Assembly: GCF_963676685.1 (NCBI RefSeq)
Contig: NC_092352.1
Location: 32,984,001 to 33,048,000, forward strand
Direction: 5' to 3'
Length of the DNA stretch: 64,000 bases
From: Mytilus edulis
Lineage: Eukaryota
Shown here: positions 28,956 through 51,195 of the stretch, one piece after another
Position numbering within the stretch: position 1 is the stretch's first letter
Layout of the letters: each line of letters starts with the position of its first letter
Position numbers and translations under genes: made by a program
Notes under the pieces: generated by a model
Told to the model about the DNA's origin: nothing
Database searches by the model: none
The model's input: only the letters and a program-made list of their open reading frames with translations

Positions 28956-30071
28956 TTACATTGCATTACTGAGTATCGCATTACAGAAACTGGTGTCTAT
29001 TGTTACAGGTTTATTATAGAATTTCCGAAAAGTGCATTGATTTGTCCACCCTGCGGTGCGTAAAATTGTCGAAAGTGGTAAACCTTTACTACAAGCTTTA
29101 GAAACAGACGCTGATCTCACACTGTGAGGTTTAAATGCGGAGCAATCTATACCAGCTGCTATCATAACTGTTTTCATCCATCTGGATATAGTGTCTTTGC
29201 TTACACCTTTATACGGTGCTACATAACTTACAAAAAATTTCTTTTCTTTCCCGCGAAATTTTTCAGTCATTTTTATATATAATTTTAAACAAGTTACAAT
29301 ACACAAATTTGTATTTACAAATCTATCTAAAACAATTTCATTTAAATGTTTTCCTGGTTTAGTTTGCTTCAAAATGTCACCTATTCTTATCTTAACAATA
29401 TCATTCGAAAACTCTAAATTACGTATATCTAATAAATGAATAGACTGTAACCTTTGAGCTGTCAACAAAGACAATAAAGAAACACATTTCAAAGTAATTT
29501 GTTTTAACGTCAAACTGTTATTTTCTAACGTATCTAAATAATTAAGTAGATCGGACACGTTCCATGTAAAATTGTATCTTGGAAGTGAAGGTCTCAATTG
29601 GAATATTCCTCTCATAAATCGCTTGACCAAATTATGTTTGCCAATTGAATCGTGTCCATTAAGTGTCATAAATGAAGACAAAGCAGATCGCGCTGTATTA
29701 AGTCCACTATAACCTATCCCTGAATGGAAAAGTTTTGCTAAAAAATCTAAAACTAAATTTACAGTTGATGACATGGGATCAGCATGTTTTTCAATACAAA
29801 AACACACCCACTTTTTGATATAACTCCAATATTGTTGTTTTGTGGAGTCTCGCCATGAATGCATGATAATGTCGACAACTGATTTTGATAAACCTTGACT
29901 TTCAAATGATCCCCGGACAATTTGAACGCTGTCAGGTGAAGTTTGTTGAGGAGCGGATGAACTTTTGCTTTGTTGAACGAAAGTGTCACAAGTGATTTCT
30001 TCACTGGTAAAATTCTGGGACAATCCACAAGCAACTGTAGAATTTTTGGAAACCAAGGTTGAGTTGGCCAT
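28956..30071 (-). CDS. DIRS tyrosine recombinase
   Basis: SWRDSTKQQY, NTARSALS, LLTAQR, SKDTISRW, HSVRSAS, AGW...FRKFY (R-H-R-W-Y catalytic pattern). Confidence 0.93.
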   Translation of the reverse strand: MANSTLVSKNSTVACGLSQNFTSEEITCDTFVQQSKSSSAPQQTSPDSVQIVRGSFESQGLSKSVVDIIMHSWRDSTKQQYWSYIKKWVCFCIEKHADPMSSTVNLVLDFLAKLFHSGIGYSGLNTARSALSSFMTLNGHDSIGKHNLVKRFMRGIFQLRPSLPRYNFTWNVSDLLNYLDTLENNSLTLKQITLKCVSLLSLLTAQRLQSIHLLDIRNLEFSNDIVKIRIGDILKQTKPGKHLNEIVLDRFVNTNLCIVTCLKLYIKMTEKFRGKEKKFFVSYVAPYKGVSKDTISRWMKTVMIAAGIDCSAFKPHSVRSASVSKACSKGLPLSTILRTAGWTNQCTFRKFYNKPVTIDTSFCNAILSNAM

Positions 30072-31702
30072 AACGGGGCTATTACGATTGCATCTGCCTG
30101 ATCCTGTACAATCTTCCTCAATACTGCTCCTAGTATGCTGAAAGGAGGGAAAATATAATTAAAGTTTGTTCCCCAATTAAAAGTAAATGCATCAACAAGT
30201 TTTGCATTTGGATCTGGTCTATAAGAACAGTATGGCGTAACTTTGTAATTTAACCGTGAAGCAAATAAATCAATATCAGGGCTTCCAAATAATTGTTCAA
30301 TTTTTATATAAACTTCACTATCTAATTCCCATTCAGTGTCATCATTGCTATTACGCGATTCATAGTCAGCTTCGCAATTTTCACTCCCCGGTAAATGTGC
30401 AGCAGTTAACCAGATGTTTCTATTTATACACCATAACAAAATCTCCCTTGTCAAGTCATTGAGATTTTCTTTCATACCGCCCATTTTATTTATATACGTC
30501 ACAGCAGTTGTGTTATCTATCTGCGCGTGTATATGTACACATGACGCGTTGCTACAAAATGACTTCAGTGTTAAATACACAGCTAACAATTCTAGTTGAT
30601 TAATGTGATAAGAATTTTCTTCAGCCGACCATCTACCACCTGTAGATTGGCTCTCATAAACTCCGCCCCATCCCGTTAAAGACGCATCTGATCTAATTAT
30701 AATTTCGGGATTTCCAATACACACATATTTCTTGCAAATCTCTATATTATCGATCCACCAATTTATATCTTGCTTACACATTTCATTAAGACCGAATTTT
30801 GCGTCATAATTGCCTCGTTGTTTCCGTAACTGTTCGTTTTTAGTTATATGCAGTCTTTTGTGAAATAATTTTGCATACGGAACGCCGTATTCGCTTGCTA
30901 CCATTTTACCTATTAGTTCAGAAAATTCTCTGATAGAAACATATTCCTTGCGTAAAATTTGTTTACATAATTCCTTGAATTTTTGAGATTTTTCTTGAGT
31001 AAGACGCACTGACATTTCTCGTGAATTCAACACAAACCCAAGATGTTGAATTTCTTGTGTCGGAACGAAAACGGATTTATTTGGATGAATTGTAAGACCT
31101 AGTTTATCGAATAAAGTAACTGTGTCATTAATGTTATTAATGCAATCCTCATAAGATTGTCCAATTAAAAGAGAATCATCGATATAGGCTGAATTGCAAT
31201 GACCTTTCTTCCGTAATTCAGAAAACACACATTTCATTATCTTTGTAAAAACACGTGGGCAAGTACTTAGACCTTGAGCTAAACATGTAAATTGATATAA
31301 TTCCCCATTCCATGTGAATCGGAGAAATTTTCGATCAGACTCTCTGACTGAAATACTAAAAAATGCATCCTTCAAGTCTATACTACCAAAATAACAATTA
31401 CGGTTCATTAAATTAATTGCAGTGCCTAAACTATCCATCTTAAAATGATAATTCTCTATATATTCATTTAAAGATTTTAAATTTAAAATCACTCGATGTG
31501 TTCCATCTTTTTTAGGTCGTGTGAAAATATGTGTCACAAACTGATTCTTGCATGGTATAGCTTTTTGGATAATGCCTTTCTTTAAAAAAGTGCTCACTTC
31601 TAAAGTTATGGAAGTTTTTTCATCTTCATTAAACGAAGGATTATTACAACTGTTACGACTGGGCGGTAAAGTGTGAAATTGTAACCGATAACCAGTCAAC
31701 AT
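29759..31702 (-). CDS. DIRS reverse transcriptase / RNase H / adenine-methyltransferase-like polyprotein (frame stays open further upstream toward ~31850)
   Basis: DLKDAFF, QGLSTCPRVFTK, YIDD (RT); SDASLTGWG, HINQLEL, DNTTAV (RNase H); DLFAS and FPPF, PLWPTQPWF (MT-like domain). Confidence 0.95.
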   Translation of the reverse strand: MLTGYRLQFHTLPPSRNSCNNPSFNEDEKTSITLEVSTFLKKGIIQKAIPCKNQFVTHIFTRPKKDGTHRVILNLKSLNEYIENYHFKMDSLGTAINLMNRNCYFGSIDLKDAFFSISVRESDRKFLRFTWNGELYQFTCLAQGLSTCPRVFTKIMKCVFSELRKKGHCNSAYIDDSLLIGQSYEDCINNINDTVTLFDKLGLTIHPNKSVFVPTQEIQHLGFVLNSREMSVRLTQEKSQKFKELCKQILRKEYVSIREFSELIGKMVASEYGVPYAKLFHKRLHITKNEQLRKQRGNYDAKFGLNEMCKQDINWWIDNIEICKKYVCIGNPEIIIRSDASLTGWGGVYESQSTGGRWSAEENSYHINQLELLAVYLTLKSFCSNASCVHIHAQIDNTTAVTYINKMGGMKENLNDLTREILLWCINRNIWLTAAHLPGSENCEADYESRNSNDDTEWELDSEVYIKIEQLFGSPDIDLFASRLNYKVTPYCSYRPDPNAKLVDAFTFNWGTNFNYIFPPFSILGAVLRKIVQDQADAIVIAPLWPTQPWFPKILQLLVDCPRILPVKKSLVTLSFNKAKVHPLLNKLHLTAFKLSGDHLKVKVYQNQLSTLSCIHGETPQNNNIGVISKSGCVFVLKNMLIPCHQL

Positions 31703-31854
31703 TTCTAGAATTGATGTATCACTTGTTATTGATCTCCAACTTTCAAGATTGTTTTTTACTTTCCCAGCTCTAAAGTTTTCAGGAGTATTAACAAGATTTG
31801 AAAATTCACATTTACTTTTGTTATCTAATTGTTTAATCTGACTAACCTGTGGAC

Positions 31855-33101
31855 TTATCGATTGTTTGGTTTGTTGAACTGTCTCCCCCCTCTTCCTCGT
31901 TTGTTCGGGAAGGAGTTTCGCTGGTCTAAAAAACGACTTTTGCCATTCCCAGTTTTATTGTTATTATACCCTTCAGAAGAATTACGATGATAGTTATATC
32001 CACTTGTTGATGGTTTCTCGGTAAATCCGGTATTAAATCCCGTTACAGATATTTTCTTTGATTTTTGAATATCTTCAATTTTCTTCTGCAAATCATCCCC
32101 AAACAATTTATCAGATACGGAATTGTTTGTATAAGTAAGTTTCTTAAACTTTCCAATCATAATTGGTTTGAAATTTTTCTTTCCTATATTGGTTTAGTTG
32201 AGTATAAGAAGCCGCGAACATTCGGATGCCATCTGTCATTTTTCTAAGGTTTTTTGTTGGCTCAAATGTATTCTTCTTCAAAGCAGCTTTCAAGATGTCA
32301 TTTGTCGTTTCTATTGCCGGAATCATTCCCTTAATGACATACCCCATGATTTTTTGTAATTTTAGATCACGTGATCTTATTGCGTTGATCATAGAGTGTT
32401 TTTCTCCCCAAACTTCTTCATTTACTGAAGGGATCATAAGGTTTTGACAGTTTTCTGGTCTTTTGTACTTCGATTTAATTTCTTTGAATTTAGAATCTGG
32501 GATTTTAGATCTTAGAGAAGTATTGACTGATTTTGCTAAGCTTTCTTCAATAGCCGCACTAGTTTCCTCAGAATCATTATAAAATTCGCTCATTTCATCC
32601 ATTAATTCATTGACCTCGTTAAGATCCTCGTCATCAGTGACGTTATCTGATTTATCAAGGTTGTCGGTCTCAGCATTTTCAAAACTACACATAAGTTTAT
32701 CTAGGTCATCAACAGACTCTGTGTCATGCTGGGAATCATCTGCAACTTTTAAGTGTTTATTTGAAATGTTAGATTCCCCGTCATCACAATGGGATCTTTT
32801 TGTTCTACTTGCACTATCGTGTGGTGCTATTGTGTATTTATTTGCACTGTCCGACACATCATCGGATTTAGAACCTAAATGTTCTGTTAGTTTTTGCATA
32901 TATTTCATCTGCTTGTATTGTAAACGTATTAAAGTGTCAATCGACATCGATGACATATCGTCGTCATCATCAGATTCAGATTCATGGGTTTGAGAATCCC
33001 TAAAGTCTTTGGGTATTCTATTATCATCTACACCCTTTCCAGATTGCTGGCTAGTGTTAGGGTTATGGTCATCATCAGATAAGTCTAGTGTCCCACTTTC
33101 T
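31855..33101 (-). pseudogene. DIRS gag-like ORF, 5'-truncated, one frameshift
   Basis: KYKRPENC..L.IPSVNEEVW, DLKLQKI, LFGDDL and an RG-rich C-terminus. ORFs 32144-32956 and 31855-32160 join by removing one base from a 5-nt run near 32175. The frame is open without ATG up to ~33101. Confidence 0.8.
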
Positions 33102-33964
33102 CAGATTCTTCTCAGTCTTTCAAATATGGTATGTGTCAACTCCATATAGAAATAGCATTTGCTTCAGAGGCTTTTCCATCCTGGTATCTAGACTATGATG
33201 ATTTTACGACAAAATTAAATCCTGGTATATATCTATGATGATTTTATTTATTTTCAACCACTGGGTTAGTCTCGATCATCCAGCCGCTTTATTTTTCAAA
33301 GTAGAGCGTCTGGATGACAAGTGATATAAAAATGGTAATTTATGACATTCGGAATAGTATCGGCTTTTTTAGCTTGTTGTCAAAGATAATGTCCAAGACG
33401 AATAACCAAGAAGTTGGTTATTGACTTCGGAAGAAATGACATTACGATAATATTATTGAAAAGCCCGAGTGTACCGATTGTTGTTTAAAGCTATTTATAT
33501 ATTTTTGTGACGACATACAATTCATGGAAAACACCATACAGCATGGCTTACATGGAACTGGAGGCGAAGTAAAAACCAGCACATCCAACCTTGGTAAGAT
33601 GTTATAACAACACACACTGTAACATAAATTGCAAGTAGTAGTTATATTCTTTCATGCATGTCCGTGCAACGAAAACGAGTTTATAATTATACAATAAATG
33701 TCAATTGTTATGTTGACTGGGACCACTCGATCAGTCGTATACGTTATAAATACATTTTGGGTTGATGTGTAGTATCGTTAACTTTAATATGAGGCAGGCA
33801 AAACCTGTGAATGGGACGTAGTCGGCAAACCAGTTTACTTGGTAGCTGTGAACACCCGAAAATTAAAATTATGGCTACAGACTATCTTTTGCAAACAATC
33901 TTAAGATATTTTCTGCATGTGTCACAGTGTGTGCATAAATTATAATTATTTTTTACTTTTATGT

Positions 33965-34735
33965 AGTCAGGGGACTTACTTAAACAAGTGATTTTCTAAA
34001 TCACTGATTCAAGTAACATTATTTCCATAAAGGTTGGAAGTTAGAGTTGTCTTTCTTTAATAATCACCTATTTAAGTAGTACAAATTAATCACTAGAAGA
34101 AGTGATTTAATATTAGTGTAGCTTTAAATATAGAATACTAATGATCCAGGGACTAATTATGTTTCTAAACTTATCAGAACCAACATCTGTGTTGTCTAGG
34201 ATGACCAGGTCATTTCAGGTGATGACCTTGTACTGAATCTAGGATAATGACATAAAAATCACTTGTTTAAGTATCAGACCTCAATTTATTTCCCAAAAAT
34301 CACTTCTTTAAGTATCATTCTTTTAATAACCCCCACTAATTTCAACACCCCCGAACAGTGAAATTTTTATCGCGAACAGTAGAATTTTATTACATAATCT
34401 GAAAGATGAAACCTTGAACTTCACAGGAAAAATACTCCCACTGCTGTGAAAAATCTTTTAAGAAAGTATCAGTTCATTATGTAAAGCCATTATTATAGCA
34501 TTTTTTCAACTAAAATAAAATTTTCAGGTAAATGATAGCATTAAAGGCATAAACCTTGCTACTTAAAAGAAGCAAAAAGTTTATATTTTTTTATTTTACT
34601 AATTAAAAGATGTTATTTAAACCTATGTGTTTAAAATTTTGAAAAAACTACAAAATCCCAATTTGTGACAAAACCTCGAATTTGCTACTCAAATAAGTGA
34701 TTTAAAAATCACTTATTTCAGTAAGTCCCCTGACT
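33965..34735. mobile_element. MITE / non-autonomous TIR element
   Basis: ~40-bp imperfect TIRs agtcaggggacttact..aagtgattt / aaatcactt..agtaagtcccctgact, with internal aaatcactt motifs. Confidence 0.75.
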
Positions 34736-36739
34736 GGTGATATACATACATGTAAAAAAATGTAACTTACATTTGTTATTGATCCAAGTTGTTACCATGT
34801 ATATAAATCAGGTATAATCATGCAGATATTTCAGCATTCCAACGTGTGTGTGCAACTTTCATATGTAGTTAGTTCCCTGTTGATATACACAAAATAGAAA
34901 AGTTATTTCCTTTACTCAAATTGAAATATGTTTAAAAAGGAATGTCTCCTCATTGTAAATACAATCAAACAGGCCAATGACTTTAATAAAAGAATACCTA
35001 TGACACATTTATTTAACTAAAACTTAATAATACCCTATTGATTTTATTGATAATCAAATAATCATGATTAACAGTTTTATAACAAACAATTTTCACTGTT
35101 AAATTCGGCAATATAAATTCAGTTTGGAAAATATAAAAAACTTAAGTTATAATGGTTTCACCTTCAAAGTATATAACTTTCTGTTACCTTCTTGAGTATA
35201 AGACTTATTTACTGTTGTAAATGCACATGCAGAAAATAAAAACTTCAAAGACAATGAACAGATGAAAGAACAACAACATGTACAATTGCAAAGATTTAAG
35301 AACAAGCATACATTTCTCAATACAACAATCAACAGTCAACAAATTGTGTCTTACTCAGAGTGGACTGTAATTTCTTCGTTATACATGTACATAAACTTGA
35401 TCTGACATGGTTCATGATATTGTCACTGGTTGTACTGTCCTTTTGGAAACCCTTGGGCCTTATTTAACAAGGGGATTTACTTGAAATATTTTATAGTTTA
35501 TAGAACTTTTAAGAGGTGCACTACATTGTTGTGTATATATATATATATATATACCTTTAGATAGAAATCAATCTGCATGCAAAGTGCAGACATATAGGCA
35601 GCATTATAAATGAGCATTATGATTATTGCATAAAAGTAAAAAAAATTATTAGGAAATTATATAAATTTAACTTTACTATATGATGCTTTGGTAAAATTGG
35701 GCTAGTATGTTAAGTTTGATTGTGAACATTGGATAGTTGTTTAATTGGCAATCATACCACATCTTTTTATTTTTATAATGATATTAAGGTAACTTCTTTA
35801 TAATCTTCCAATGGTACAGAGTAATCTTACTATAATGTAAAAATGTATCATTGAAGTCAACAATTGTTTTAAATTTAATGTCTAACTCTTTACTCTTTAG
35901 CGAATGTTTAGTACATGTATGTATTGATGAAACAAATTAGTCATATGAACAGTACTAATTAATTAACTTAAAAAAAATAACAGCTTTCCATTTCTGATTA
36001 ATGCAAGTCATAAATAAGTTTACTGTATGTATAAAATTCATGTGAGAAAAAAATAATTTAAAGGTCAATTTTCTTTGTATACTTGTAAATAAACATTAAT
36101 CATTTGTTAATAGATATATATGACATATAAAATAGATGTGTACTTTGTTTACTAAATAAAGTTCATGGTACAATATATGTTCACTCAATGTTACAAATTT
36201 GTTTTATAGTAAGATTTTGCAACCCGCTAGAAACTAGTATGTCACCTGCAGGGTTACAATAGGTATATTTTAAAGAGAACAGCCAATAAATGTATTAATT
36301 GTACAATAAAGGTACACGACCAATGACTGTATAAAGTATACAATAAAAGTACCAGCTAGAGATTGGTATATCCCCTGCATGGTGATTGGGACATGATAAT
36401 AAAAAAATAAAAGTAAAACTTTAGGCAATACATGTACATATGTATTTCATCGTATTTCTCAATCCATACAGCATGACCTTATACAAAATATTTAAAGATA
36501 ATTTCAACCAGTCAAATATAAATATTATAATCATGTAAATCTTTGATATTTTATAAAATAAGCAGGTTTATTTTTTAATCTATTTTTGATATTCATTTAT
36601 AAGGACAAAATTATAATTCCACTTTGTAATCCATATATAAATGAAATGATTTTTATTAATTTCAATATTTATATAAATGCTGATCAAGAAGTATAATAAA
36701 AATATATTTGTGAAAATGTAGACACCAAGCTACCTTTAA

Positions 36740-37336
36740 GGTGGTATAGGAGTCTAAAATAAAAATGATAGAATTTGTTCATACTTTGCCAAACCGTATT
36801 TTCTATTGATACATTTTGAAAAATATAATAGAAATGATAGGTCACCGCGCATTTTCTCAAGCTACAGGACGGAACAAAATGACACATTTTGTATGGATTA
36901 TACAGGAAAAAACACCATTTTGTGATTAGAAACTAAACAAAATGATAGAATTGTTAAATACTTCAGGAAAAGATAGCTTTCAGACACTGCTTTGAGAATA
37001 TCAAAAGTAAAGATAAGGTCACCGTACGTTTTTTCCGGCTAAATTACAAAATAGGAAAATTCCATGTAGAATCCTTCAGAAAAAGCACTGTATTAGAGTT
37101 ATCTCCCCTTAAAATGCCAATGTAAAAAAAATTAAAAACAACCAAAAATAATTAACATAAATTTGCAAAAATATCAATATTTATAAGTTATTTTCTTATT
37201 AATTGGTTCTCATAAATGAAAATTCACATTAGATAACCTGCATTCCTGTATCAAATTTTGCTAACAAGATGGAAAATCTGGACCTTTGGTTCTCTTTTTT
37301 TTACAATCCAAGTTGGAGGAAGACACCCATACCACC
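36740..37336. mobile_element. Kolobok-like MITE
   Basis: TTAA|ggtggtataggagtct ... agacacccataccacc|TTAA. Confidence 0.75.
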
Positions 37337-37354
37337 TTAATTCCTATAAAAAAA

Positions 37355-38077
37355 TTATTGTTTTAAAATTTCATGCTGTATGGAGGTACACATATTTGTG
37401 TACCACTCTTCATATAACTCCTCTGTAGGATGTACTCCATCATACAGATTTTGATAGTTGTAACGGTAATATTTTTTGTTTCTTCTGATTTTCATTTTGA
37501 TCATTGTTTTGTCCCATCTAATGTTTGAAACCCCCCCATCTTTATTTAAATCCATAATTTCCTGGTTGATGTAATCAACATCCAATTCCAGCTCTTTTTG
37601 CATTTTGTCAATTTCTACATCAGAAAATATGCTTTGCCTCAGCCTATACTGCTGTTTTTTGAATTGATACCTGTTTAAGTTGAAATCCCTATATTTGTTT
37701 ATGCAGGCTGGGACAATTGACACAAATTGAACAGGTATATTATTTACTAATAAATGTGCTTGAATACTTCTCAACTCTGAGACAATATTAACAACATTGC
37801 TGTTGTCTCTTATATACCTTAACTCTGTACCATTTTCATGGCTGACCTTTTCTGTAAGGTTACACAGTCCTGCTGCTAATACAACCCTTATATTTTTATG
37901 ATCAATAGATACAATTTCATCTTTTATACCTTCATAAATTTGACCTATTGTCCCCCCTGGTCTCACAAGTACATGGGTATTGAAATGTGTCCCAAAGCAC
38001 ATGTTGCGCTCTATATAATCATATAAACGCGACCCCCTGGAAGTACAACCAAAAACTATGTGTCCAAGTGCACTCAT
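37355..38077 (-). CDS. SGNH/GDSL-hydrolase-like protein (240 aa)
   Basis: Block I-like VFGCTSRG, block II-like RPGG, block III AAGLCNL, block V YDGVHP. Intact single-exon ORF with a splice acceptor (ttacag) ending 11 nt upstream of the ATG. Confidence 0.75.
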   Translation of the reverse strand: MSALGHIVFGCTSRGSRLYDYIERNMCFGTHFNTHVLVRPGGTIGQIYEGIKDEIVSIDHKNIRVVLAAGLCNLTEKVSHENGTELRYIRDNSNVVNIVSELRSIQAHLLVNNIPVQFVSIVPACINKYRDFNLNRYQFKKQQYRLRQSIFSDVEIDKMQKELELDVDYINQEIMDLNKDGGVSNIRWDKTMIKMKIRRNKKYYRYNYQNLYDGVHPTEELYEEWYTNMCTSIQHEILKQ

Positions 38078-38191
38078 ATTTTAAAACCTGTAACAAATTA
38101 TAATAAATCATAACTAATACTGAAATGAAATAAAAGTTACAATAGTATATATATATGTTTACTCAAGCATTATTTTACTGTGTAATCATTA

Positions 38192-38373
38192 GGCAGCAAC
38201 CATTTGATTTTCAGGGGGGGGCTATGGTTTGTTTTCAGGTTTTGGTGAAAAAAATAATTTGTTTTGGAACCTGATAAAAAAATAGATTGTCCTTCGCCGA
38301 AGGCGAAAAGAAAAGTTTGCACTGTCAGAAAAAAAAACATAGCCCCCCCCCAGAAAATCAAATGGTTGCTGCC
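38192..38373. mobile_element. PIF/Harbinger-like MITE
   Basis: TTA|ggcagcaaccatttgattttc..gggggggctatg ... catagcccccccc..gaaaatcaaatggttgctgcc|TTA. Confidence 0.8.
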
Positions 38374-38575
38374 TTAGCCATCTCAAGCTACTAAGCTGAA
38401 GTGATTCATCTTAGTTGAGAAGATTCAGAACATTTGTGTAAGCCAAGGCTACATTTTGAAGGCTAAATACTTTGACCTAAAATGGTTAACTTTTACAAAT
38501 TCTGACTTGGATGAATGGTTGTGTCATTGGCACTCATACCATATCCTATATCTATATAGTATGACAAAAAAATAC

Positions 38576-41500
38576 GAGATTGGAATGTCCCATACCACAT
38601 GTACCACTGGCATGTCAGATGAGCTAGTATATTGGTTATTGGTTGGAGACTGGTATGTCCCCTAACATTGGCATGTAGGATGAGCAAAAATTGTGTTATT
38701 GGTTAGAAACTGGTATGTCCCCTACCATAGGCATGTTGGATGAGCAAAAATGTTTTTTGTCAGTTAGAGACTGGTATGTCCCCTACCACTGGAATGTTGG
38801 ATGAGCAAAAATGTTGTTATTGGTAAGAGACTGGTATGTCCCCTACCACAGGCATGTTGGATGAGCAAAAATGTTGTTATTGGTTAGAGACTGGTATGTC
38901 CCCTACCACAGGCATGTTGAATGAGCAAAAATGGTGTTATTGGTAAGAGACTGGTATGTCCCCTACCATTGGTTTGTTGGATGAGCAAAAATAGTGTTAT
39001 TGATTAGAGACTGGTATGTCCTCTACCATTGGCATGTTTGATGATCAAAAATGGTGTTATTGGTTAGACTGGTATGTCCCCTACCATTAGTTTGTTGGAT
39101 GAGCAAAAATGTTTTTTGTCAGTTAAAAACTGGTATGTCCCCTACCACTGGAATGTTGGATGAGCAAAATGTTGTTATTGGTTAGAGACTGGTATGTCCC
39201 CTACCACAGGCATGTTGGATGAGAAAAAATAGTGTTATTGGTTAGAGACTGGTATGTCCCCTACCATTTTCGTGTTAAATGAGCAAAATGTTGTTATTGG
39301 TTAGAGACTGGTATGTCCCATACCACAGTCATGTTGAAAGAGCAAAAATAGTGTTATTGGTTAGAGACTGGTATGTTCCCTACTATTGGCATGTTGGATG
39401 AGCAAAATATTGTTATTGGTTAGAGACTGGTATGTCCCCTACCACAGGCATGTTGGATGAGCAAAAATAGTGTTATTGGTTAGAGACTGGTATGTCCCCT
39501 ACCATTTTCGTGTTAAATGAGCAAAATGTTGTTATTGGTTAGAGACTGGTATGTCCCAGACCACAGGCATGTTGAAAGAGCAAAAATAGTGTTATTGGTT
39601 AGAGACTGGTATGTCCCCTACTATTGGTTTGTTGGATGAGCAAAAATAGTGTTATTGGTTAGAGACTGGTATGTCCTCTACCATTGGCATGTTTGATGAG
39701 CAAAAATGGTGTTATTGGTTAAAGGCTGACATGTTGGATGAGCAAAAATGTTAGTTATTGGTTAGAGTCTGGTATGTCTCCTACCATTGGCATGTTGAAT
39801 GAGCAAAATGTTGTAATTGGTTCGAGACAGGCATGTAGGATGAGCAAAAATAGTGTTATTGGTTAGAAACTGGTGTGTCCCCTACCACAGGCATGTTGAA
39901 TGATCAAAAATGGTGTTATAGGTAAGAGACTGGTATGTCCCCTACCATTGGTTTGTTGGATGAGAAAAATAGTTTTATTGATTAGAGACTGGTATGTCCT
40001 CTACCATTGGCATGTTTGATGATCAAAAATGGTGTTATTGGTTAGAGACTGGTATGTCCCCTACCATTGGTTTGTTGGATGAGCAAAAATGTTTTTTGTC
40101 AGTTAAAAACTGGTATGTCCCCTACCACTGGAATGTTGGATGAGCAAAATGTTGTTATTGGTTAGAGACTGGTATGTCCCCTACCACAGGCATGTTGGAT
40201 GAGCAAAAATAGTGTTATTGGTTAGAGACTGGTATGTCCCCTACCATTTTCGTGTTAAATGAGCAAAAATAGTATTATTGGTTAGAGACTAGTATGTCCC
40301 CTACTATTGGCATGTTGAATGAGCAAAATGTTGTAATTGGTTAGAGACAGGCATGTAGGATGAGCAAAAATAGTGTTATTGGTTAGAGACTGGTATGTCC
40401 CCTACCACTGGAATGTTGGATGAGCAAAAATGTTGTTATTGGTTAGAGACTGGTATGTCCCCTACCACAGGCATGTTGGATGAGCAAAAATAGTGTTATT
40501 GGTTAGAGACTGGTATGTCCCCTACCATTTTCGTGTTAAATGAGCAAAATGTTGTTATTGGTTAGAGACTGGTATGTCCCATACCACAGGCATGTTGAAA
40601 GAGCAAAAATAGTGTTATTGGTTAGAGACTGGTATGTCCCCTACTATTGGCATGTTGGATGAGCAAAATATTGTTATTATTGGTTAGAGACTGGTATGTC
40701 CCCTACCACAGGCATGTTGGATGAGCAAAAATAGTGTTATTGGTTAGAGACTGGTATGTCCCCTACCATTTTCGTGTTAAATGAGCAAAATGTTGTTATT
40801 AATTAGAGACTGGTATGTCCAATACCACAGGCATGTTGAAAGAGCAAAAAATAGTGTTATTGTATAGACTGGTATGTCCCCTACTATTGGCATGTTGGAT
40901 GAGCAAAATATTGTTATTGGTTAGAGACTGGTATGTCCCATACCACAGGCATGTTGAAAGAGCAAAAAAAGTGTTATTGGTTAGAGACTGGTATGTCTCC
41001 TACTACTGGCATGTTAGATGAGCAAAAATGTGGTTATTGGTTAGAGACTGGTATGTCCCCTACCACAGGCATGTTGGATGACTGAGCAAAAGTGGTGTTA
41101 TTGGTTAGAGACTGGTATGTCCCCTACCACAGGCATGTTCGATGAGCAAAAATGGTGTAATTGGTTAGAGACTGGTATGTCCCCTACCACAGGAATGTTG
41201 GATGACTGAGCAAAAGTGGTGTTATTTGTTAGAGACTGGTATGTCCGCTACCATTGGCATGTTGGATGAGCAAAAAAGTTGTTATTGGTTTAAGACTGGT
41301 ATGTCCCCTACCACAGGCATGTTGGATAAGCAAAAATAGTATTATTGGTTAGAGACTGGTATGTCCCCTACCATTTTCGTGTTAAATGAGCAAAATGTTG
41401 TTATTGGTTAGAGACTGGTATGTCCCATACCACAGGCATGTTGAAAGAGCAAAAATAGTGTTATTGGTTAGAGACTGGTATGTCCCCTACTATTGGCATG

Positions 41501-42235
41501 TTGGATGAGCAAAATATTGTTATTGGTTAGAGACTGGTATGTCCCATACCACAGGCATGTTGAAAGAGCAAAAATAGTGTTATTGGTTAGAGACTGGTAT
41601 GTCCCCTACTACTGGCATGTTAGATGAGCAAAAATGTGGTTATTGGTTAGAGACTGGTATGTCCCCTACCACAGGCATGTTGGATGACTGAGCAAAAGTG
41701 GTGTTATTGGTTAGAGACTGGTATGTCCCCTATCACAGGCATGTCCGATGAGCAAAAATGGTGTTATTGGTTAGAGACTGGTATGTCCCCTACCACAGGC
41801 ATGTTGGATGACTGAGCAAAAGTGGTGTTATTTGTTAGAGACTGGTATGTCCGCTACCATTGGCATGTTGGATGAGCAAAAAAGTTGTTATTGGTTAAAG
41901 ACTGGTATGTCCCCTACCACAGGCATGTTGGATAAGCAAAAATAGTATTATTGGTTAGAGACTGGTATGTCCCAGCTACCATTGGCATGTTGGATGAACT
42001 AAATGTTGTTATTGGTTAGAGACTGGTATGTCCCCTAATACAGGCATGTTGGATGAGAAAAATAGTGTTATTGGTTAGAGACTGGTATGTCCCCTACCAC
42101 AGTAATAATGGATGAGCAGAAATGTTGTTATTGGTTAGAGACTGGTATGTCCCCTACCATATAGGCTTAGGAAAAATAGTGTTATTGGTTGGAGACTGGT
42201 ATCTCCCTTACTACACAAATGTTGGATTAGCAAAA
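38576..42235. repeat. ~60-61-bp satellite array, about 60 units
   Basis: Consensus ttattggttagagactggtatgtcccctaccacaggcatgttggatgagcaaaaatagtg. Variant units recur in higher-order blocks; edges are degenerate. Confidence 0.97.
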
Positions 42236-42263
42236 AAAAATTAAAAAAAGTTTCATAATGCAT

Positions 42264-45200
42264 TTATTCTTCATGTCGAAGATCAGTTGTTTCCCTGAAT
42301 TTATGTAAAATTTTGCTATTACTTATAAATGAGTATTTAGAAAAAGTTGCATTGGATAAATTTTGAATTCTTTTAATTTCTAAGTCTCTAGCTCTAGTTG
42401 TAGGAGTATTAACTATGTGACATAATCTGTCTTGATTGACTAAGACTGCAGGGTGCCATGCAAAGTCTGGTGGTGTTCTATCATCACCTGCAGTCTTAGC
42501 GCGCGACAGTGCTACAAATAAAGCTCCAGGGGTAAGTGATTCAAACTTTCGTGTGCCTGGATTAATAACAATATATCTACTTGATTCTCCCTCTCCAATA
42601 GTCATACCTTGACATCTATGTATTGTAGTGCCCCAGCCCAGCCTGAGTGGTATTTGGGTTATAGAACATGAATAGCAAAAACAATCAATTTTTCGTTTAA
42701 TAGGTGTAATAGGTACAATTTTTACATCATGGTTTACAAAAGGTGGTCCAGTATATTTTTGAAATTTTACCATCACACAAACTGGTTGACAATCTTTTGG
42801 AGTTTTGCCTTCAGGGTAGATAATTTCGACAACCGTCCCAGTTGAACCATTGAACAGGCCAAATTTCACATGTAAGTTTGTTGTCAACATAACTTTACAA
42901 CCTATGCATAAATAAACGGTCGGAAGTAAGCCTTTAGCGTTTTCACTGGATACACCCTTTGCATGTGAACCATGAGAAATGGCATCTACTTTTGCTATTG
43001 GATTTCTTTCATTTGCTTTTAAAATTTTTGTTTTATTATGAAGCCATTCTTCGTTATGGGTAGGAAAAACAAAAAGACTATTTTCATCCATGTCATCTAT
43101 AAACGATTGACCATGTGACTTAAGGAGGTCTCCCCATTGAAATTTTTGCAGCCAGGTTGCATGGTCTTGAGTAAGTTTGTACTCTCTTAAAGCACCAAGG
43201 ACATTTTTAAAATAAGATTGATCCTCTGCTTGGCGGACTACAGTTTTTAATAATACTGCCTCGTTAAATTCTTTCCAAACAAGTGCACCATGCATACCTG
43301 CTGGGCTTTTTGAATTTGCTTTATATACAGGAGTATCTAAAACTGGGGGCAGTTGCACATCATCACCAAGAAAAATTACAACAGGGAGCCCCCCCCCCCC
43401 CAGGATTGAGAAGCATTTAAACCTTTTTGTACAGCACATCTACACATGTACTCCATCCAACCTAACGTTGTACATCCAATTAAAGAACGCTCATCCACTA
43501 TAAGTACTTTTAAACCTTCACAGTTTTTTTGTAAAATTTCACCGGTAGAGCCATCAGGAGCTTTCATTTCTTTTGACTTATATGTTGTGGGAATTTTTAA
43601 AAAGCTATGTATGGTTACACCATCTATTAAATTAGCACTGTTACCAGTAGGACAGAGAACTTGTACACACTTATTTGTATTAAAAAAACATTTCACTGCT
43701 TTTACCAAGCACTTAATTAGATATGTTTTGCCACATCCTGCACTGCCACCTACAATCAGTCTTAATGGAGTAAAATTAAGTGGGTTATTTTGAAAATCAA
43801 ATAATGCTTTCATAACTAAATTAAAGGCAAACATTTGGTCTTCATTTAAAGATGAAATATTTATATCTGTATTAAATGACAGTTCATCAACAGAAATGCT
43901 TTCTTCAATTTTCAAGTTCTCTATAAATTTTACTCCCAAGTCTGCAGGATAATTATAGTTTGTGACGGACCAGTTATAATCTGGTCCCCCATCATCAAAC
44001 TTAAATTCTGAATTGTCTGTGAATTCTGCATTTGGTTTAATAACTTGGATCCACTCTGGCTGAGACATGTTTTCAAATTCAGAATTATCATCGTCCGACT
44101 TATCATCCACAAGTCCATTTTGTGCTGCATTATTTGCTCGTTCAACGTCTGCCTTTACAAAGTTTGGACAATAGTCAGTTAATAAAAAATGCCTGAATAA
44201 ATCATTCCAACTTACATTATCATCTTTAATGTCTGAAAATTTTCTCCAGTCATGCCAATGAAGAATAAGGGTATTTTTACAATAATTTTCTGTAAGGGGA
44301 CATGTTGCTCTGAGACTTCCACCTGATATAACAGGGACTTTTCCACTTTTGCAAATATAATTGTACCACGAACAGTGATCATTTTCTGGACGGGATAAAT
44401 ACTTATCTAATGGGGTCAGTTTTGTAGCAGTGGATCCATTTTTTTCTAGTATTCGTGCACCAGTTAAACTTATATTTTGAAATGCATGGCTTGATCTATA
44501 TAGAGGTAAAGCAGACAGTTCAAAAGAGGTTTCAACAGCTGAAATATCTCTTTTAACAGTTCCCATTAATAATTTTGTACATAGTGATTTGGTATTAGAA
44601 CCGGTTGTTTCATCAGCACTATTTACCATATCATTAAATAAATCTGCCACAGCCCCTGTAGGTTCATTGCCTTTACATGCATAACCACTAACATATTTTT
44701 CTACTGCAATAATTTCATTAACAGAGGGATTTTCAGGCCCACTCTTTGAAAGAATTAGAGATATATCACCATTTGCTCGCCATGCCTGTGTGTGTATTTG
44801 AGAATGTTGGACCAGATTAGGGTGGTCCCTCTCCATCTCTAAACGTAAGGATCCATTTCTATCTTTTACTATTGCTGGATTATCTCTAACGGTTTTACCT
44901 GGGTTTAATGATGTGCCAAACTCCATACGACACTGTTTAACTGGATTAGAGGGGTTATTTCTAGGGGCACGAAGACAATAATCTGAGCACCTATGCAGAT
45001 TTATTCTGTTACATAGAAGTAAATGATCTTCCAAGATACTTTCTTGTGATTCACTTACATCCATAAGCAATTTATTTAGTGGATTTTTTTCATCAGGAGG
45101 GGCTGGGGCAGTGCCTTCTGGTGGAGGCCACAGATTTTTTTTGGGCTTATTGTTTTCATCTAGCCCTGCAGGATGGTTTGCAGTCATTTTGTATTCTAGT

Positions 45201-48200
45201 TTAGCCCAGTCAGAGAGAAGTTTTGCACATTCGTCATCTGTTTTTCCATCAACGTAAGCTTGGTGCATAAGATTGTGAGGTTCTTTGTCAAATCGCCAAC
45301 ACAAACCATGCCAATGTATCATACCTCTTGACTTTGAAAATTCTTGCCTATACCAATAACTATTAACCCCAAATACAGGTCCCATAATCTCTTTGAAATA
45401 GCTTTGAGTTCTTTTATCAAAATAATCTCCAACAATGTGTGTATTATCTTGTACAGCTTTGAACATTTTGTTGTGGTCATTTAAATCAATTTCGTTGCCA
45501 GTTGTTTCTTTAATGTAAAGGGAAAGGATTCGTTTCAGTGGTTTAAAGTAAAATTCTGCACAACTGCCAGTGGTAAAAAAAGATGGTAGACCCTGACCTT
45601 CATTAATTTTATACTGAATAAGGGCTCTTAATTCTTTTGATCTTTGATTCCAATATTGTGAAGTGCCTCTGAGGTTTGCACTGAAATAAAGAATTTTTTC
45701 AGCTACAGATTTATCTCCAGTTTGTAATTTAGCCTTCAAATCTGAAAGTGTTAACATATTTTCACCAAGTTTTTGTTGAACTATAAATGTACTATTATCT
45801 AGCACACGTTTTCTATTTATTATATTGTGAACAATGAATTTAAAAAATTTGTGCTTTGCAAAGCGGCCATCCTTATACCAAATTAAATGGTTTGCCCAGT
45901 CTGACATCGAAGAACATGTTAATGGGCGATTCATATGGAAGTCTGCACAAGCATGTGGAAATAAACATGGAAAAGCTAGTGTGAAAAAATGTCTTGTAGT
46001 AAACTCAGAAAGTGGAATCTTACCACGAGTTGGCCAAGGAATTGATACCTGACCTTTTTTATTAATAGAAATGTTAGTATTTTCTTCTGTAGCAATTTCA
46101 TCAACAGCATCTTGTATTTTTTGTTTAATATCAAAACATGGTTCTGGAAGCAAAACACTAGATATAGTTTCTCCTTCCACATTACCTGGATCAATTTGCT
46201 TTGGTGCTGGACCCTGATCATTTAAATGTCCAACATTAGAGTTATACTCTAATGTATGAATGTTTTGTATTTGCCCATCCTCTGGTAATAAATTTAAACG
46301 TTCTTCACTTATTTCTATGTCAGAATAAGCCGGATTATTTTTTTTTAACCATATAAGGGCTATTTGTACTTTTTGCCGCCTGACATTGAATTCTTTTGAT
46401 GTATCGTTTTTTCCTATTTTCCTAACTCTTATTATATTAACTTCTGAAGGAAGTTTAGGTAAAATTTTGCCAGGTTCATTTACCTCTTGTGGAAACGCCA
46501 CACAGTGGCCATTTGCAGCAATACCCCCATGTTTTAACATGTGTATATTTATGCAAGGTGAAATTCGGGAAATTAATTGCTCTTCAACAACAGATAAATT
46601 TGCTAGTTCTAGGGGTACTTCTCCAGGATTCATATTATTTTCAGTAGAAAACATCTTAATTACAACTTTATCTTTAAAACACCTTTCACATACACTGTTT
46701 TTTTTTCAAATTAATCTTTCTTTCAAAACAAACTGAACAAACATCAATTGTGTAAGACATTTCTTGTAGTTCAAAAGAACGAATGCAGTTAACTGCCTTG
46801 TTAAAATGCTCATCATCAGCAAATGGAGGTGGATCTGGTATTGTCTCAAAATTTATATTTAGTTTATTTAGTTTGTATTTAATTTTATTATAATTTTTCA
46901 AGCATCTTTTTTTATATTCATCTGGAGTTTCATTTTCAACAGGTGGGTCATATGTTAAACCCAGTTTTCTGCATTTAGTTTGCAGGTCTAAATCTTTTTC
47001 TGTTTGATTGTTAGTCATATTTGTTTTATTGTGAGTTTCAAGTACCGGATTGTCAGCAATTGTATTTGTTGACACACTGTTTTGGCTATAATTTAGAGAA
47101 TCTCCAGTATTGAAATGTTCATTGTTGACAGATGTATGTGATATTTGTGCTGTTTTTTTATTTTTCATGATCTTAATTCTTCTCTTTATTCTCAAGCATC
47201 TTTTTTGGTATTCTTTTGCAGACTCATTTATATTTGGAAGCTCATATTTGATACCTTGCTCTATACATTCAACCTGCAGTTCTTGATCTCGATTGATTTT
47301 TTTAAGTGACTTATTATCAATTGACTTTATAATTGGCATGTTTTTAAATTTTTCAGAAATATGATTTTCTGACATACATGTAACATTTGGAAGGTAAACA
47401 ATTTTTTGTTTTTTTTCAGGAACGGTTAAATGTTTAAAATTGAATTTTCTCTTAATACTGGCGTTACCATTTTTATTTGATATTGCATATTTATTTTCAT
47501 TTAATTGTGACAGTAAAATAATTGGTTGTTGTGGAATTTTTCTCAACAGTTGAAAATGGTTATGGCTAAGTAAAATATTTATTGTTCTACTCTGAGGTGA
47601 GTGGATGTATTGCTCTTTGGTAAAAACTGTTTTGTTTGCCAAGTTTGTTCCTTGTATCCAGATATTTATATTGCTTTGAGTAATTTTTGATGCCATTGAT
47701 ATCTCACAAGAGGTTGCCCATCCTCTTCCATTGACCATTGTTTGTAAATAAATATCCCTTGTGATATTGTTATAATGGGATAGTTTTAGAATATCCTCAT
47801 ATATATAAAAATTGTTGTAAATTTCTGAGCATGATAATGAGCGATAGACATGTGTCTGGGAGAAATCCCCATTTATAGCTAAACTAAGTGATGAGAAAAA
47901 GCAATTTCCATCTCCAGGAACATCATATATGAAAAAGTTATCGTTTTCTATAGCAATCACTCCATTGTGGGGCACATTTAAAAAAGATTGTTTCTGTGCT
48001 AAATGCTGTGTGTCTTTTTTGTTGTGTGATTCTGGAATACATTCCTCAGCTTCAGATTTAATAACAGTATCTAATTTAGAATAAATGGCTTTAGTTTTTG
48101 TATTTTGGGACTTGACTACATTTGCATATGTTTGCTCACTATTTAGTGGAGAACTTGAAGCATAAACCTGTGTAGAACTTGGAGTAACATTGAAGACTGG

Positions 48201-48300
48201 CATAATTTCATTCTTGTCTCCGGTTTTCTTGGGAACAAATTTAACAACATCAGCAAAAGTTAAATTGGGAACTAAATATGAAAAATCATCAGTTTTGCAA
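42264..48300 (-). CDS. Helitron-like Rep/helicase polyprotein (OTU protease, C4 zinc finger, HUH-Y2 endonuclease, PIF1-family helicase), ~2000 aa after correcting two homopolymer frameshifts
   Basis: OTU VPGDGNCFF..WATSCEI..HF; FFTTGSCAE; YWYRQEFSKSRGMIHWHG (HUH); KYVSGYACK (Y2); GSAGCGKT, DERS, GDDVQLPPV, TIHRCQGMT, VALSR (PIF1). Breaks fall at T9 (46698-46706) and C13 (43389-43401). Confidence 0.9.
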
Positions 48301-48538
48301 TATTATAATGATGATTTGAATGTTTGTCAAAAGAATGACCATTGACCGGTGTATCATTCATATTAGCATATGAATGGTCACTGGTTCTGTTCTGCATATT
48401 ATCAAAAGAATGGCCATTGACCAATGGCAATGCATAACGAGCATATGAATGGTCACTGCCACTATAACTTTTAATGTTCTGCATTTTATCTCTGTTTTCC
48501 TTCTTAAAATAGTATATAATTAAGATGGCAACTTTCAA
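48272..48538 (-). CDS. Probable N-terminal segment of the Helitron-like protein with duplicated SDHSYA..VNGHSFD motif
   Basis: Overlaps the upstream open extension of ORF 46686-48203 in another frame; contains an internal ~75-bp duplication. Confidence 0.4.
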   Translation of the reverse strand: MKVAILIIYYFKKENRDKMQNIKSYSGSDHSYARYALPLVNGHSFDNMQNRTSDHSYANMNDTPVNGHSFDKHSNHHYNIAKLMIFHI

Positions 48539-49291
48539 TTCAATTCACACTTACAAGTAGTTCTTTGGCAAATATATATAACGGGTTTTGATGGTCTTGA
48601 AAATTTAAGGGTTGTCAGCGAGCCGATAGTCGTCTGCTAACGAACGTGCAGACGATTTTTTTGTGACAAGGAGACATTATATATGGCAATCCTATGAATT
48701 TAATGGCAGTTACTATGCGGTAATGTACTTGTAGAATTGATATGTAAAAAAAATATACATTATAAAAGGTAAAAAAGGACTAAAACTTGATATTTTAATG
48801 TAAACAAGAAGCGTGTTGCTATGAAGCCACCGGCCATCTTTCCAGTTGTTAAGAAGCTGATGTGTATCAATACCGACAAGTGATAAAAACTAGCGATGAC
48901 AAATGAATAAATGTTGAATTACTTGATATAATTTTAATCTTTGTTCTATTTTTGTTACATATCAAACGAATAACAAATTGACACTAAACTAGTCGAACGT
49001 TAATCGTAAAAAGGGACACGAAAAGCATATGCATGGTAATGTTATTGTGTTGTAGTCCGTACTCTTTTTGGTATTCATATTTATTTTTTAAGATTGTTCG
49101 TCAGCAGAACCGGAATAGATTTTAAAAAGTCGATCTGCGCCGATGCTTCACTACCGGTAACTACTTCTGCGCCGGTCCGGGATTTCAAAACATGACATAA
49201 AAAAAAGTTAACGATTTTGAGTTCATTAGTACAATGAAAAATTCGGGAAATTTTCCCGTATTTTTTTTTTTATTGAATTTTCTACTGTTAT

Positions 49292-49321
49292 TGGGGACTC
49301 CGTCCCCATATAAATACTTGA
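49292..49321. other. Candidate terminus of the Helitron-like element (GC-rich hairpin)
   Basis: tggggac-tcc-gtcccca stem-loop followed by tataaatacttga|t; a second hairpin cgggaaattttcccg lies at ~49244-49258. Confidence 0.5.
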
Positions 49322-51195
49322 TGGAAAACTGCTAAGACGCCGAAATATCACCTTCATCCAAGATATGTTTGTTGTATCTATCTAAATCTTGATATGTGTA
49401 AAAAAAAAAAAAGGGGGGGAGGAGAGATACACAATGATGACTGATGTACACTTTCAAAGAAAAACAAACAAAGTGTATCTAGGAGATGCTAGAAGATTTT
49501 ATACCAAATGGTCAAAATGATTTGTACATTCAATTTTCTGCAAAACAAAAGACAGTTAAACAATATATTCAGCATCAATGAAAAGACGTGTAAATGAGGC
49601 AGCAACCAGTGAATCTAATGCCATAAAATACCAAAAGTAGTCTAGAAATCGTCATGATTAACAGTTTATCATGTAGACTAAAACAAAAAGTGAAGATAAA
49701 ATTGCCAAAAGCTCAATATTACACAAATAAGGAGATGTGGTATGAATACCAATGTGAACTATCCACTCAAGTTCAAATCAATTGGATGTGAGTAATTATA
49801 GGCAACTGTATGGCCTTCAAAAATTAGAAAAATCCATGCATGGTTTGGATAGAGAAAATAAACAGGGAATGTGTCAAAGAGACACTGGGAAACCCGACAA
49901 AAAAGCAGTAAACAGTTCGATGTCACCAATGGGTCGGGTCTTCAACGCAGCAATATAATCTTGCACCCTGATGCGGGATTCAGCTTGCCCAAGGACAATC
50001 ATTTATACAATATATTTCTATGATGGTTTTTTTAAACAATTATATGCTATGCTGGTGACTAAAAATTAATATGATTTTAATATTTACTTTCTCTTGTAGA
50101 CAAACCAAATTGAATGATGATTTATGGACACAGATTTTATGTGTAAAATGTGAAGAATTAAAAAACATGTAATATTCAGGATTTTCATTGTATCATAACC
50201 ATGCTTCAACTTTATAAGAACAAAGTTCAAACCGAAAGATTTTTTTTTTAATTACTGAAGCATCAATCAGTTTAAATAGATCACATTACCAAACATGTTA
50301 GGTATACCTTATTTAGACAGCCGCCACAAATCGAAAAAAATACACAGACGTATATTGATTAAATGAAACAAATATCAAGAAACACATTGTTGTCAGACAT
50401 GGTAGGGAAATTAGATTTGTATTAACAAATTAAAAATCATATGAACAATTAAAGAGTTAGTTTTTACGGTTGAATTGTATCTCATTTTCATGTGGGGTCT
50501 TTTTATAGTTGAATATATGATACGGAGTTTTCTTGATATTAAAGGTCATGCAGTGATCACATTTGCGTATATCCATGTCATTTGAACTCTGCTGGGTTGC
50601 TGCCTCGTTAGAAATCATACCAATTTCCTTATATTTATTTAAAAGGTTCACATGAGAAGTTTTTGTTCTTGTGAATCTATCCTTTATTGCATGCTAATAC
50701 ATGATGAATATTATAAGAGTTGGAGAATTAGAATACACAATAAAAGTTACTATGCAGTATGAGATAAATCCCATTCCATCTTTTCCATGTACATGATTCA
50801 AACATGCATTCAAAGAGTATTGGGTTTCATGACTGACTGTTTAAGTTCTATATTTCTCCATGGACACGGGCTACACTTGCAAAGTGGTTTTGTGTGAAGG
50901 TTGGTTCCTACATATTTTCTTCCTAAAAGGATTAGGCGATTATTGGTGAAACAGCTAAGAAACATTCAGACTATTCTGTCGTTTGCAGTTTAAAGATCAG
51001 TTAATTTTGTAAATAAAAATTGAGTTGGCTTATTGTGTGATTTCGCTGATCTGCCAGTTATACCTGTTTAGGAAGTTTTTCTACATACGCAATCTTATAG
51101 TATTTTTATGAGATGTTTTTCTTTACATAGATGTAACTTGATGTGTGCTTTTTGGTAAGGTGAGTGCATCAGATTTATAAAAAATGACATCATAA

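Follow-up and report, generated by a model that had tools for sequence, protein, structure and literature searches.

An SGNH gene and a hairpin-derived array linked to RepHel in a Helitron2-like element of Mytilus edulis

In a 64,000-nucleotide stretch of the Mytilus edulis genome (contig NC_092352.1, positions 32,984,001 to 33,048,000), here called the window and used for all coordinates without a prefix, we describe a Helitron-like element of about 15.5 kb, in which a gene for a Rep-helicase protein (RepHel), an array of 60-bp units and a gene for a protein of SGNH fold follow one another. The window is C9:32984001-33048000 in a genome of 1.37 Gb, and the named protein relatives at 92-100% identity belong to Mytilus. 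All parts named in an earlier reading of the letters alone (the sequence-only reading), the co-oriented OTU-zinc finger-HUH-PIF1 and SGNH open reading frames (ORFs) among them, are present, on the minus strand. On the whole, we are inclined, with somewhat more confidence than doubt, to see here a member of an endonuclease-less HLE2 clade that stably carries a retroelement-related SGNH gene, and whose array is an amplified sense-strand hairpin, likely acting in RNA as a docking site for a protein.

The whole element spans 33787..49311 (minus strand), three nested insertions included, as defined by a sharp stop of homology at both ends against three other full copies, and runs beyond both limits of the cassette drawn earlier at 37355..48538. 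Copy alignment and folding give at the 5' end (49292..49311, minus strand) a subterminal inverted repeat with the nested hairpin TGGGGAC-GGA-GTCCCCA, and the 3' end (33787..33823, minus strand) has a subterminal inverted repeat, a short hairpin CAGG-TTTTG-CCTG and a terminal CATAT followed by TA. Among the ends listed, a T stands two bases ahead of the invariant 5' start in all 14 and TA comes directly after the 3' end in all 15, the flanks, which alone were compared, being otherwise unrelated. The terminal repeats are short, asymmetric and subterminal, hairpins are present at both the 5' and the 3' end, and TC...CTRR ends are absent, all of which is the configuration of HLE2; passages of PMC11417382 describe for HLE2 an insertion between T and T without target duplication. 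Both ends recur on non-autonomous copies of ~490 bp. The 5' end gave 1694 first-look candidates in the genome, 40 of them scored, and among the eight fetched, seven are ~490-bp elements with both ends and the eighth, 319 bp long, matches the 5' end of the full element over its first 275 bp; no array is found in these eight.

RepHel (42264..48484, minus strand, ATG at 48484) is recognised by Pfam and by motifs as a protein of the order OTU, zinc finger, DUF6570, HUH Rep and PIF1 helicase. The Pfam matches are OTU (E 8e-5), Helitron_like_N (E 1e-21) and PIF1 (E 4e-10), the HWH motif of the HUH Rep and the Walker A and Walker B motifs are those of HLE2, and a CxxC..CxxC zinc finger lies at the P0001/P0002 junction between OTU and DUF6570. 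That no apurinic/apyrimidinic (AP) endonuclease follows the helicase, as noticed earlier, is borne out by Pfam and by alignment to the ends of relatives: none of the 91 RepHel relatives listed, in a search limited to 609-1941 amino acids and with bivalve and coral names among them, has an endonuclease family, and in 21 aligned relatives the C-terminus lies no more than 5 residues from that of this RepHel. Because of these two results, the closest label is HLE2 without endonuclease, Helitron2-like, and a strict Helentron label does not fit. The strict definition of Helitron2 agrees in the missing endonuclease but not in the single ORF, as two further ORFs, that of SGNH and a third one, are enclosed between the ends. 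A quick version of a RepHel tree parts this clade from four other Helitron families of the same genome. The ratio of nonsynonymous to synonymous substitution rates (dN/dS) of RepHel is 0.12-0.37. The gene is broken in this copy by frameshifts at three places (near 48300, 46705 and 43392), and two of these fall in homopolymer runs as read from the assembly alone; since the C11 copy is open at those three places and broken at two other A-runs, some of the frameshifts may be assembly errors. An AATAAA overlapping the RepHel stop (42263..42268, minus strand) and followed by a T-rich tract is predicted to be a poly(A) site for RepHel just ahead of the array; contigs of four runs give on this side one short piece of ~90% identity and otherwise no cover, which carries no weight either way. 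Upstream of the gene, a splice-donor-like GTAAGT (48549..48554, minus strand), kept in all four 5' arms aligned, is predicted from its letters to end a non-coding first exon. Just before it there is a ~36-nt self-complementary stretch (~48615-48650, minus strand), identical between 5' arms that are otherwise 70-80% identical. At the RepHel N-terminus, two SDHSY/SDHLY repeats (48484-48350, minus strand) resemble the HCF-1-binding D/E-H-x-Y motif.

The array occupies 38602..42236 (minus strand) with 60.5 copies of 60 bp and starts 28 bp after the RepHel stop, in good agreement with the ~60 copies and ~30 bp reported before. It was also said to separate the two ORFs almost entirely, and the array is indeed there, but ~500 bp including a nested miniature inverted-repeat transposable element (MITE) lie between it and the SGNH splice acceptor. 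Each unit consists of a 28-nt hairpin and a 32-nt spacer, and on the sense strand the hairpin has a 4-bp outer stem, an A.A (purine-A) mismatch, a 6-bp stem with two G.U pairs and a 6-nt loop. Two single copies are located 3' of SGNH, one (36350..36389, minus strand) with a stem that is changed yet paired and the other (36221..36260, minus strand) with a long paired outer stem and an RNA folding z of -2.7. Compared with shuffles, RNA folding gives z of -2.4 and -2.7 for the sense and +0.8 for the antisense strand, and the sense strand is the more stable RNA in 33 of 34 motif copies. The outer stem varies freely in sequence yet stays paired, with T-A/C-G swaps coupled in 24 cases versus 10. A tight hairpin pattern has 8 matches genome-wide and none in a reversed control; the three new ones are pieces of C14, a diverged family of the same genome, one of them beside another decayed SGNH. 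With a covariance model built from 11 copies of this genome only, 530 kb were scanned and only these elements matched apart from one match of E 0.67; four other Helitron families and retroelement SGNH loci gave no match at E<0.5. Rfam reports 3 sub-threshold matches over 33700-49400, none in the array, and no family above the gathering score.

When the model is applied to 37 loci outside this genome, it gives 16 matches, 14 of which are on the sense strand 3' of a RepHel stop, in 6 loci. Of the cells in these 14 hairpins 96.7% are paired, two-sided changes number 19, and none of 500 shuffles reaches as high; pairing is kept across families that are only 45-60% identical in RepHel. In 7 of 8 families the first copy stands 20-90 nt behind the RepHel stop, and the relatives have the hairpin as 1-11 scattered copies without an array, in most of them with an inner arm GGTGAY. 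For the C14 family and the outside contigs the termini were not recoverable. An acceptor-like pyrimidine tract with AG is seen just ahead of the first hairpin at L134:1325, L136:2515, L137:1210 and L128:1398. On these comparisons, the array is a tandem amplification of a conserved structured hairpin native to the clade rather than an inserted satellite. In a branch of the clade with named coral proteins, a different 65-bp unit is tandemly repeated directly after the RepHel stop (L127:3039-3479) and occurs also in L138 and L141, which suggests that this position has been amplified repeatedly.

The SGNH gene (37355..38077, minus strand) encodes 240 amino acids within an open frame of 241 at 38080-37355, and is identified by structure prediction: the model has a predicted local distance difference test score of 89.7, and its top Foldseek matches in PDB are GDSL/SGNH enzymes (E 3e-8, template-modelling scores 0.58/0.68). 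Of the two ORFs described before as RepHel and an intact SGNH, the SGNH one is open and has the fold, whereas RepHel is frameshifted. Pfam and PDB sequence searches with the ORF return nothing, no Pfam model passing its cut-off for this family, and an Atlas lookup for a stored homologue yields nothing but unnamed clusters and others in which Lipase_GDSL is a minority label. The protein has Ser14, Gly42/43, Asp214 and His217, a Cys73 in place of the oxyanion Asn, and a basic insertion before DGVH. Its profile collects 2108 clusters at E<=0.001; 143 of them were classified, and for 31 the Helitron type is the nearest. In an alignment of 31 rows (28 Helitron-type clusters and 3 references) the Ser of block I is found in 30, and the Gly of block II and the Asp and His of the block V Asp-x-x-His in all 31, while block III, where Cys73 aligns with the Asn of GIND, has Cys in 29 and Asn in 2, and is hence without the oxyanion Asn in most rows; the basic insertion ahead of DGxH is shared across the alignment. 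Between 3' haplotypes, SGNH has dN/dS values of 0.11 (p 5e-12) and 0.19, similar to those of RepHel, and the gene is under purifying selection between element lineages.

Distant relatives of SGNH in this genome are found in Gypsy-like elements, where they precede gag or follow integrase, and ahead of ORF1 in elements similar to long interspersed nuclear elements (LINEs), the element types being read from translations. This unannotated family occurs there as a separate ORF in Gypsy-like/LINE-like elements (L012, L014, L018, L027, L029, L030; L017, L019, L020-L025, L028). A tree of 34 rows sets the 7 from Helitrons on one side of a branch (93/84), with gag-upstream Gypsy ORFs as their neighbours (90/89). 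Our analysis shows a retroelement-type SGNH accessory gene that is kept by selection in a DNA transposon clade. Besides, a splice-acceptor-like AG (38088..38089, minus strand) stands 10 nt before the start codon, and the SGNH exon is covered by contigs from two putative RNA runs, each of a different study, that stop at 38090 and 38091, right next to this acceptor, a weak hint at splicing of SGNH. An upstream exon was not found, raw RNA reads over the SGNH exon being ~0-1.5-fold and too thin for junctions. For the array as an intron, one of the roles proposed in the sequence-only reading, the same acceptor is a hint.

The order RepHel - array - SGNH is found in 4 of 4 full copies in this genome, between shared HLE2 ends and with arrays of about 61, 413, 92 and 47 units, the 413-unit array being known from the assembly alone; arms that are near-identical thus differ in array length, over a range of 47 to 413 units. 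Two types of 5' arm and two of 3' arm occur among the four copies, in every possible combination. In the window copy the 5' arm is 99.6% like C11 and the 3' arm 99% like C13, and the switch from the C11 type to the C13 type lies between 43389 and 42242, ahead of the array, which rules out a crossover inside the array. Because the arm switch precedes the array, the array and SGNH are, judged from these arms, exchanged together as a module. A third ORF of at least 189 amino acids, with no Pfam or PDB match, is seen in the 3' arm of the C11 copy (C11:32750338-32750904; L034:5338-5904) and of the C8 copy, where a 12.5-kb insertion at a TTAA site splits it (C8:49614187-49626654); it is deleted in the window and C13 copies.

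Beyond the full copies, the C14 family (RepHel identity 43-61%) has a decayed SGNH ~3.6 kb after the RepHel stop, with about ten scattered hairpin copies in the spacer and no array. The diverged RepHel remnants C1b, C8b and C1c are truncated or interrupted and uninformative, neither SGNH nor hairpin being seen in them, and in four distant Helitron families that have long ORFs, the 20 kb fetched for each contain no SGNH. A survey of 80 outside loci finds SGNH 3' of RepHel in L122, L134 and L136. Outside the branch with named coral proteins, SGNH comes after RepHel in 3 of the 4 loci having at least 2 kb downstream; inside that branch it is found in 0 of the 4 loci having at least 3 kb, and the branch has neither hairpin nor SGNH. 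By comparison of copies and relatives, the linkage of RepHel and SGNH is real and marks a clade. It had been proposed that the RepHel-array-SGNH layout may define a distinct family. The linkage does mark a clade, being present in the four full copies, in C14 and in three outside contigs, but the array is not defining: it is absent in C14, and the relatives have scattered hairpins only.

The array itself is met outside the Helitron as well. An array search of the genome gives at least 8 first-look candidate places, 7 of them scored, and the arrays known, the C11 copy included, comprise four in this Helitron, three in KolobokD-like elements and one 130-bp scrap. Stand-alone arrays as free satellites are ruled out, since three sit in KolobokD. 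These three (C12:79.07 Mb, C12:79.26 Mb and C4:93.31 Mb) have the array directly after an exonuclease gene, with abrupt mid-unit junctions, in place of ~0.5 kb that is retained in 4 of 7 copies; in 8 of the 11 KolobokD loci fetched, the covariance model of the hairpin has no match. The carrier has a Mutator-like Pfam match (E 1e-43), an RNase_T match (E 2e-7) and a 3' end CACC-TTAA, its 5' end not being located, and portions of PMC9587614 give as marks of KolobokD a DDE transposase with a DEDDh exonuclease, a TTAA duplication and RR..YY ends. As the Helitron array has decayed edge units and motif homologues, we infer that the array moved from the Helitron into KolobokD. The possibility raised at the outset, that a widespread satellite had inserted independently, fails on the derivation of the unit from a hairpin native to the clade.

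Three insertions are nested in the window copy: a MITE with terminal inverted repeats (TIRs) and a TTA duplication (38192..38373), absent from the C11 and C8 copies; a non-autonomous element of Kolobok type with a TTAA duplication and GG...CC ends (36740..37336), found by copy comparison; and a 775-bp TIR element (33965..34739), absent from the C13 copy and standing alone elsewhere at 93%. Just past the 3' end of the Helitron there is a tyrosine-recombinase retrotransposon (28956-33100, minus strand) with gag-like, reverse transcriptase-RNase H-Dam-like and recombinase ORFs, and further on a C1q-domain exon (20159-20635, minus strand, Pfam E 2e-23); both mobile elements could be situated inside a C1q-domain gene or upstream of it. 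In addition, a 97%-identical array of 57-bp units, ~27 in number and in two blocks, is located at 10452-12143, where the minus strand has long open frames, and short arrays of 168, 159, 135, 35 and 146 bp at 1267-2087, 4580-5941 and 25687-26304, the 159-, 135- and 35-bp units recurring at other fetched loci.

RepHel proteins nick at the Helitron ends and move the element with its short partners. Under the interpretation favoured here, RepHel would nick the ends in this way and drive rolling-circle movement of both, SGNH would be made from a separately spliced message, and the hairpins after the stop codons would be read in RNA. Their reader would most likely be the SGNH protein through its basic insertion, with RepHel as second candidate, in view of the co-occurrence of SGNH with the hairpin, the basic insertion and the precedent of Oskar (below). 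Array length would drift by slippage or unequal exchange, so that the number of docking sites would differ per copy. The role as protein-binding platform suggested earlier thus finds indirect support, and the third role suggested, that of a replication product, is plausible as far as changes in array length are concerned. In a wider form, which is doubtful and which we put forward as speculation, this would be a widespread animal rolling-circle clade with an RNA operator of its own (a G.U-rich hairpin after each stop) and a retroelement-derived SGNH binder; the satellite, as an array of amplified operators, would tune the element and could pass into other transposon superfamilies.

Several observations weigh against the favoured interpretation. 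RepHel has frameshifts or deletions in all four full copies, and the predicted poly(A) signal at its stop would exclude the array from the mature RepHel mRNA. A 5-kb derivative and the short partners are without hairpins and SGNH, because of which both appear dispensable in cis for movement. L122 has SGNH and no hairpin after the RepHel stop, and L131 shows no hairpin in the ~650 nt examined. The basic insertion is shared with the Gypsy and LINE relatives of SGNH, which are without the hairpin, and according to parts of PMC3905857 the ZfL2-1 esterase is a lipid binder that does not bind oligo-A RNA. The branch supports 93/84 and 90/89 in the SGNH tree, which has no true root, are below the starred level. 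As to the hairpin, its pairing was counted on model-fitted alignments of sequences that are related to one another, its half of the unit is less variable than the spacer to a weak degree (p 0.01-0.36, unanchored count), changes away from G-C go to G.T (6) and to A.C (5) about equally, and the choice between action in RNA and in single-stranded DNA depends on folding energies and G.U pairs.

Among the alternatives, the one that survives best, though improbable in our view, keeps the same element and cargo and places the action of the hairpins on the single DNA strand displaced in rolling-circle transposition, as loading or pause sites for RepHel or as priming signals for the second strand. In its favour, DNA hairpins are read by HUH enzymes, and the motif here belongs to one strand, the coding one, with an inner arm GGGGAC...GTC similar to the terminal hairpin of this family; also as DNA the sense strand is more stable than the antisense in 30 of 34 copies. 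However, DNA folding is no better than that of shuffles (z +0.2, -1.3 and -0.2; mean -3.5 kcal/mol), the short partners spread without the hairpin, and in most relatives the inner arm is GGTGAY. Clearly less probable is a neutral array, in which replication slippage multiplied a hairpin that was useful once or arose by chance, and SGNH travels as passive cargo without a role for the element. The wide range of unit numbers between near-identical arms, the persistence of the array in an unrelated KolobokD element, the commonness of HLE2 arrays and the branch of the clade without SGNH would all agree with it, and array copies beyond a few may well be neutral, but the purifying selection on SGNH between element lineages, the Ser, Asp and His invariant in 30-31 of 31 related proteins and the pairing kept across diverged families argue against it. 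A palindrome bound as double-stranded DNA by a host or element protein, serving as enhancer or promoter for SGNH with sites multiplied by the array, is quite unlikely: the imperfect inverted repeat with a fixed 6-bp spacing upstream of the SGNH exon and the roughly equal G.T and A.C changes suit it, yet a DNA reader would not need the pairing that the freely changing outer stem retains through coupled swaps, and hairpin copies are found also 3' of SGNH.

Returning to the SGNH-carrying HLE2 clade with an amplified hairpin, we compare it with the known systems, in which SGNH cargo of Helitrons (fish texim) and of retroelements, as well as central repeats of HLE2, are already on record. With Helitron2/HLE2 elements lacking AP endonuclease, as portrayed in portions of PMC11417382 and PMC4067079, it has in common the asymmetric subterminal inverted repeats, the end hairpins, a probable T/T insertion context, a RepHel with OTU and DUF6570, and many short non-autonomous partners; whereas Helitron2 is described there with a single RepHel ORF, the mussel element adds a selected SGNH gene, a repeated internal hairpin and, in two copies, a third ORF. 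SGNH and GDSL have 0 mentions in the HELIANO main text and one supplementary file (PMC11417382). An SGNH gene 3' of RepHel, or this hairpin, was not found in the literature examined, and Repbase, the 2015 review of Thomas and Pritham and possibly HELIANO Table S11 may hold the layout.

The texim-Helitron of teleost fish likewise has an SGNH-hydrolase gene travelling with a Helitron in several species; in the sections of PMC4021074 used here, texim, with up to 15 exons, either precedes the Helitron ORF or contains that ORF within one of its introns, and is interpreted as a host gene that was captured. By these descriptions the mussel SGNH is set apart, with one coding exon downstream of RepHel and relatives among retroelement ORFs. 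With the SGNH/GDSL esterases of retroelements, namely ORF1 of CR1/L2/RTEX, ZfL2-1 (parts of PMC3905857) and the Vesta/Athena ORFs (parts of PMC5408684), it shares a catalytic-triad SGNH fold as cargo passed between element classes, but it travels in a DNA transposon, has Cys instead of Asn in block III, and is matched above the cut-off by no Pfam model. Central repeats of HLE2, as in Cg_HINE of oyster (PMC7492417, in part) and the Helitron satellites of Paramecium (PMC13085455, in part), where arrays occur also in ORF-bearing Helitrons, are internal arrays of variable length too, and excerpts of PMC4067079 also report arrays inside HLE2 elements; the mussel array differs in that the short partners lack it, its unit comes from a conserved structured motif, and it has, as inferred above, moved into KolobokD. 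The OSK domain of Oskar is, in the relevant part of PMC10792757, a precedent for an RNA-binding SGNH fold; OSK has lost the catalytic triad, whereas the mussel SGNH keeps it and would bind RNA by analogy. Overall, a satellite monomer is here traced to a conserved structured motif and not to random sequence, and an array is caught in its probable passage from a Helitron into a cut-and-paste transposon, which bears on the origin of Helitron central repeats and of satellites. Why mobile elements keep the SGNH fold becomes testable in a system without reverse transcription and with a defined 28-nt candidate ligand.

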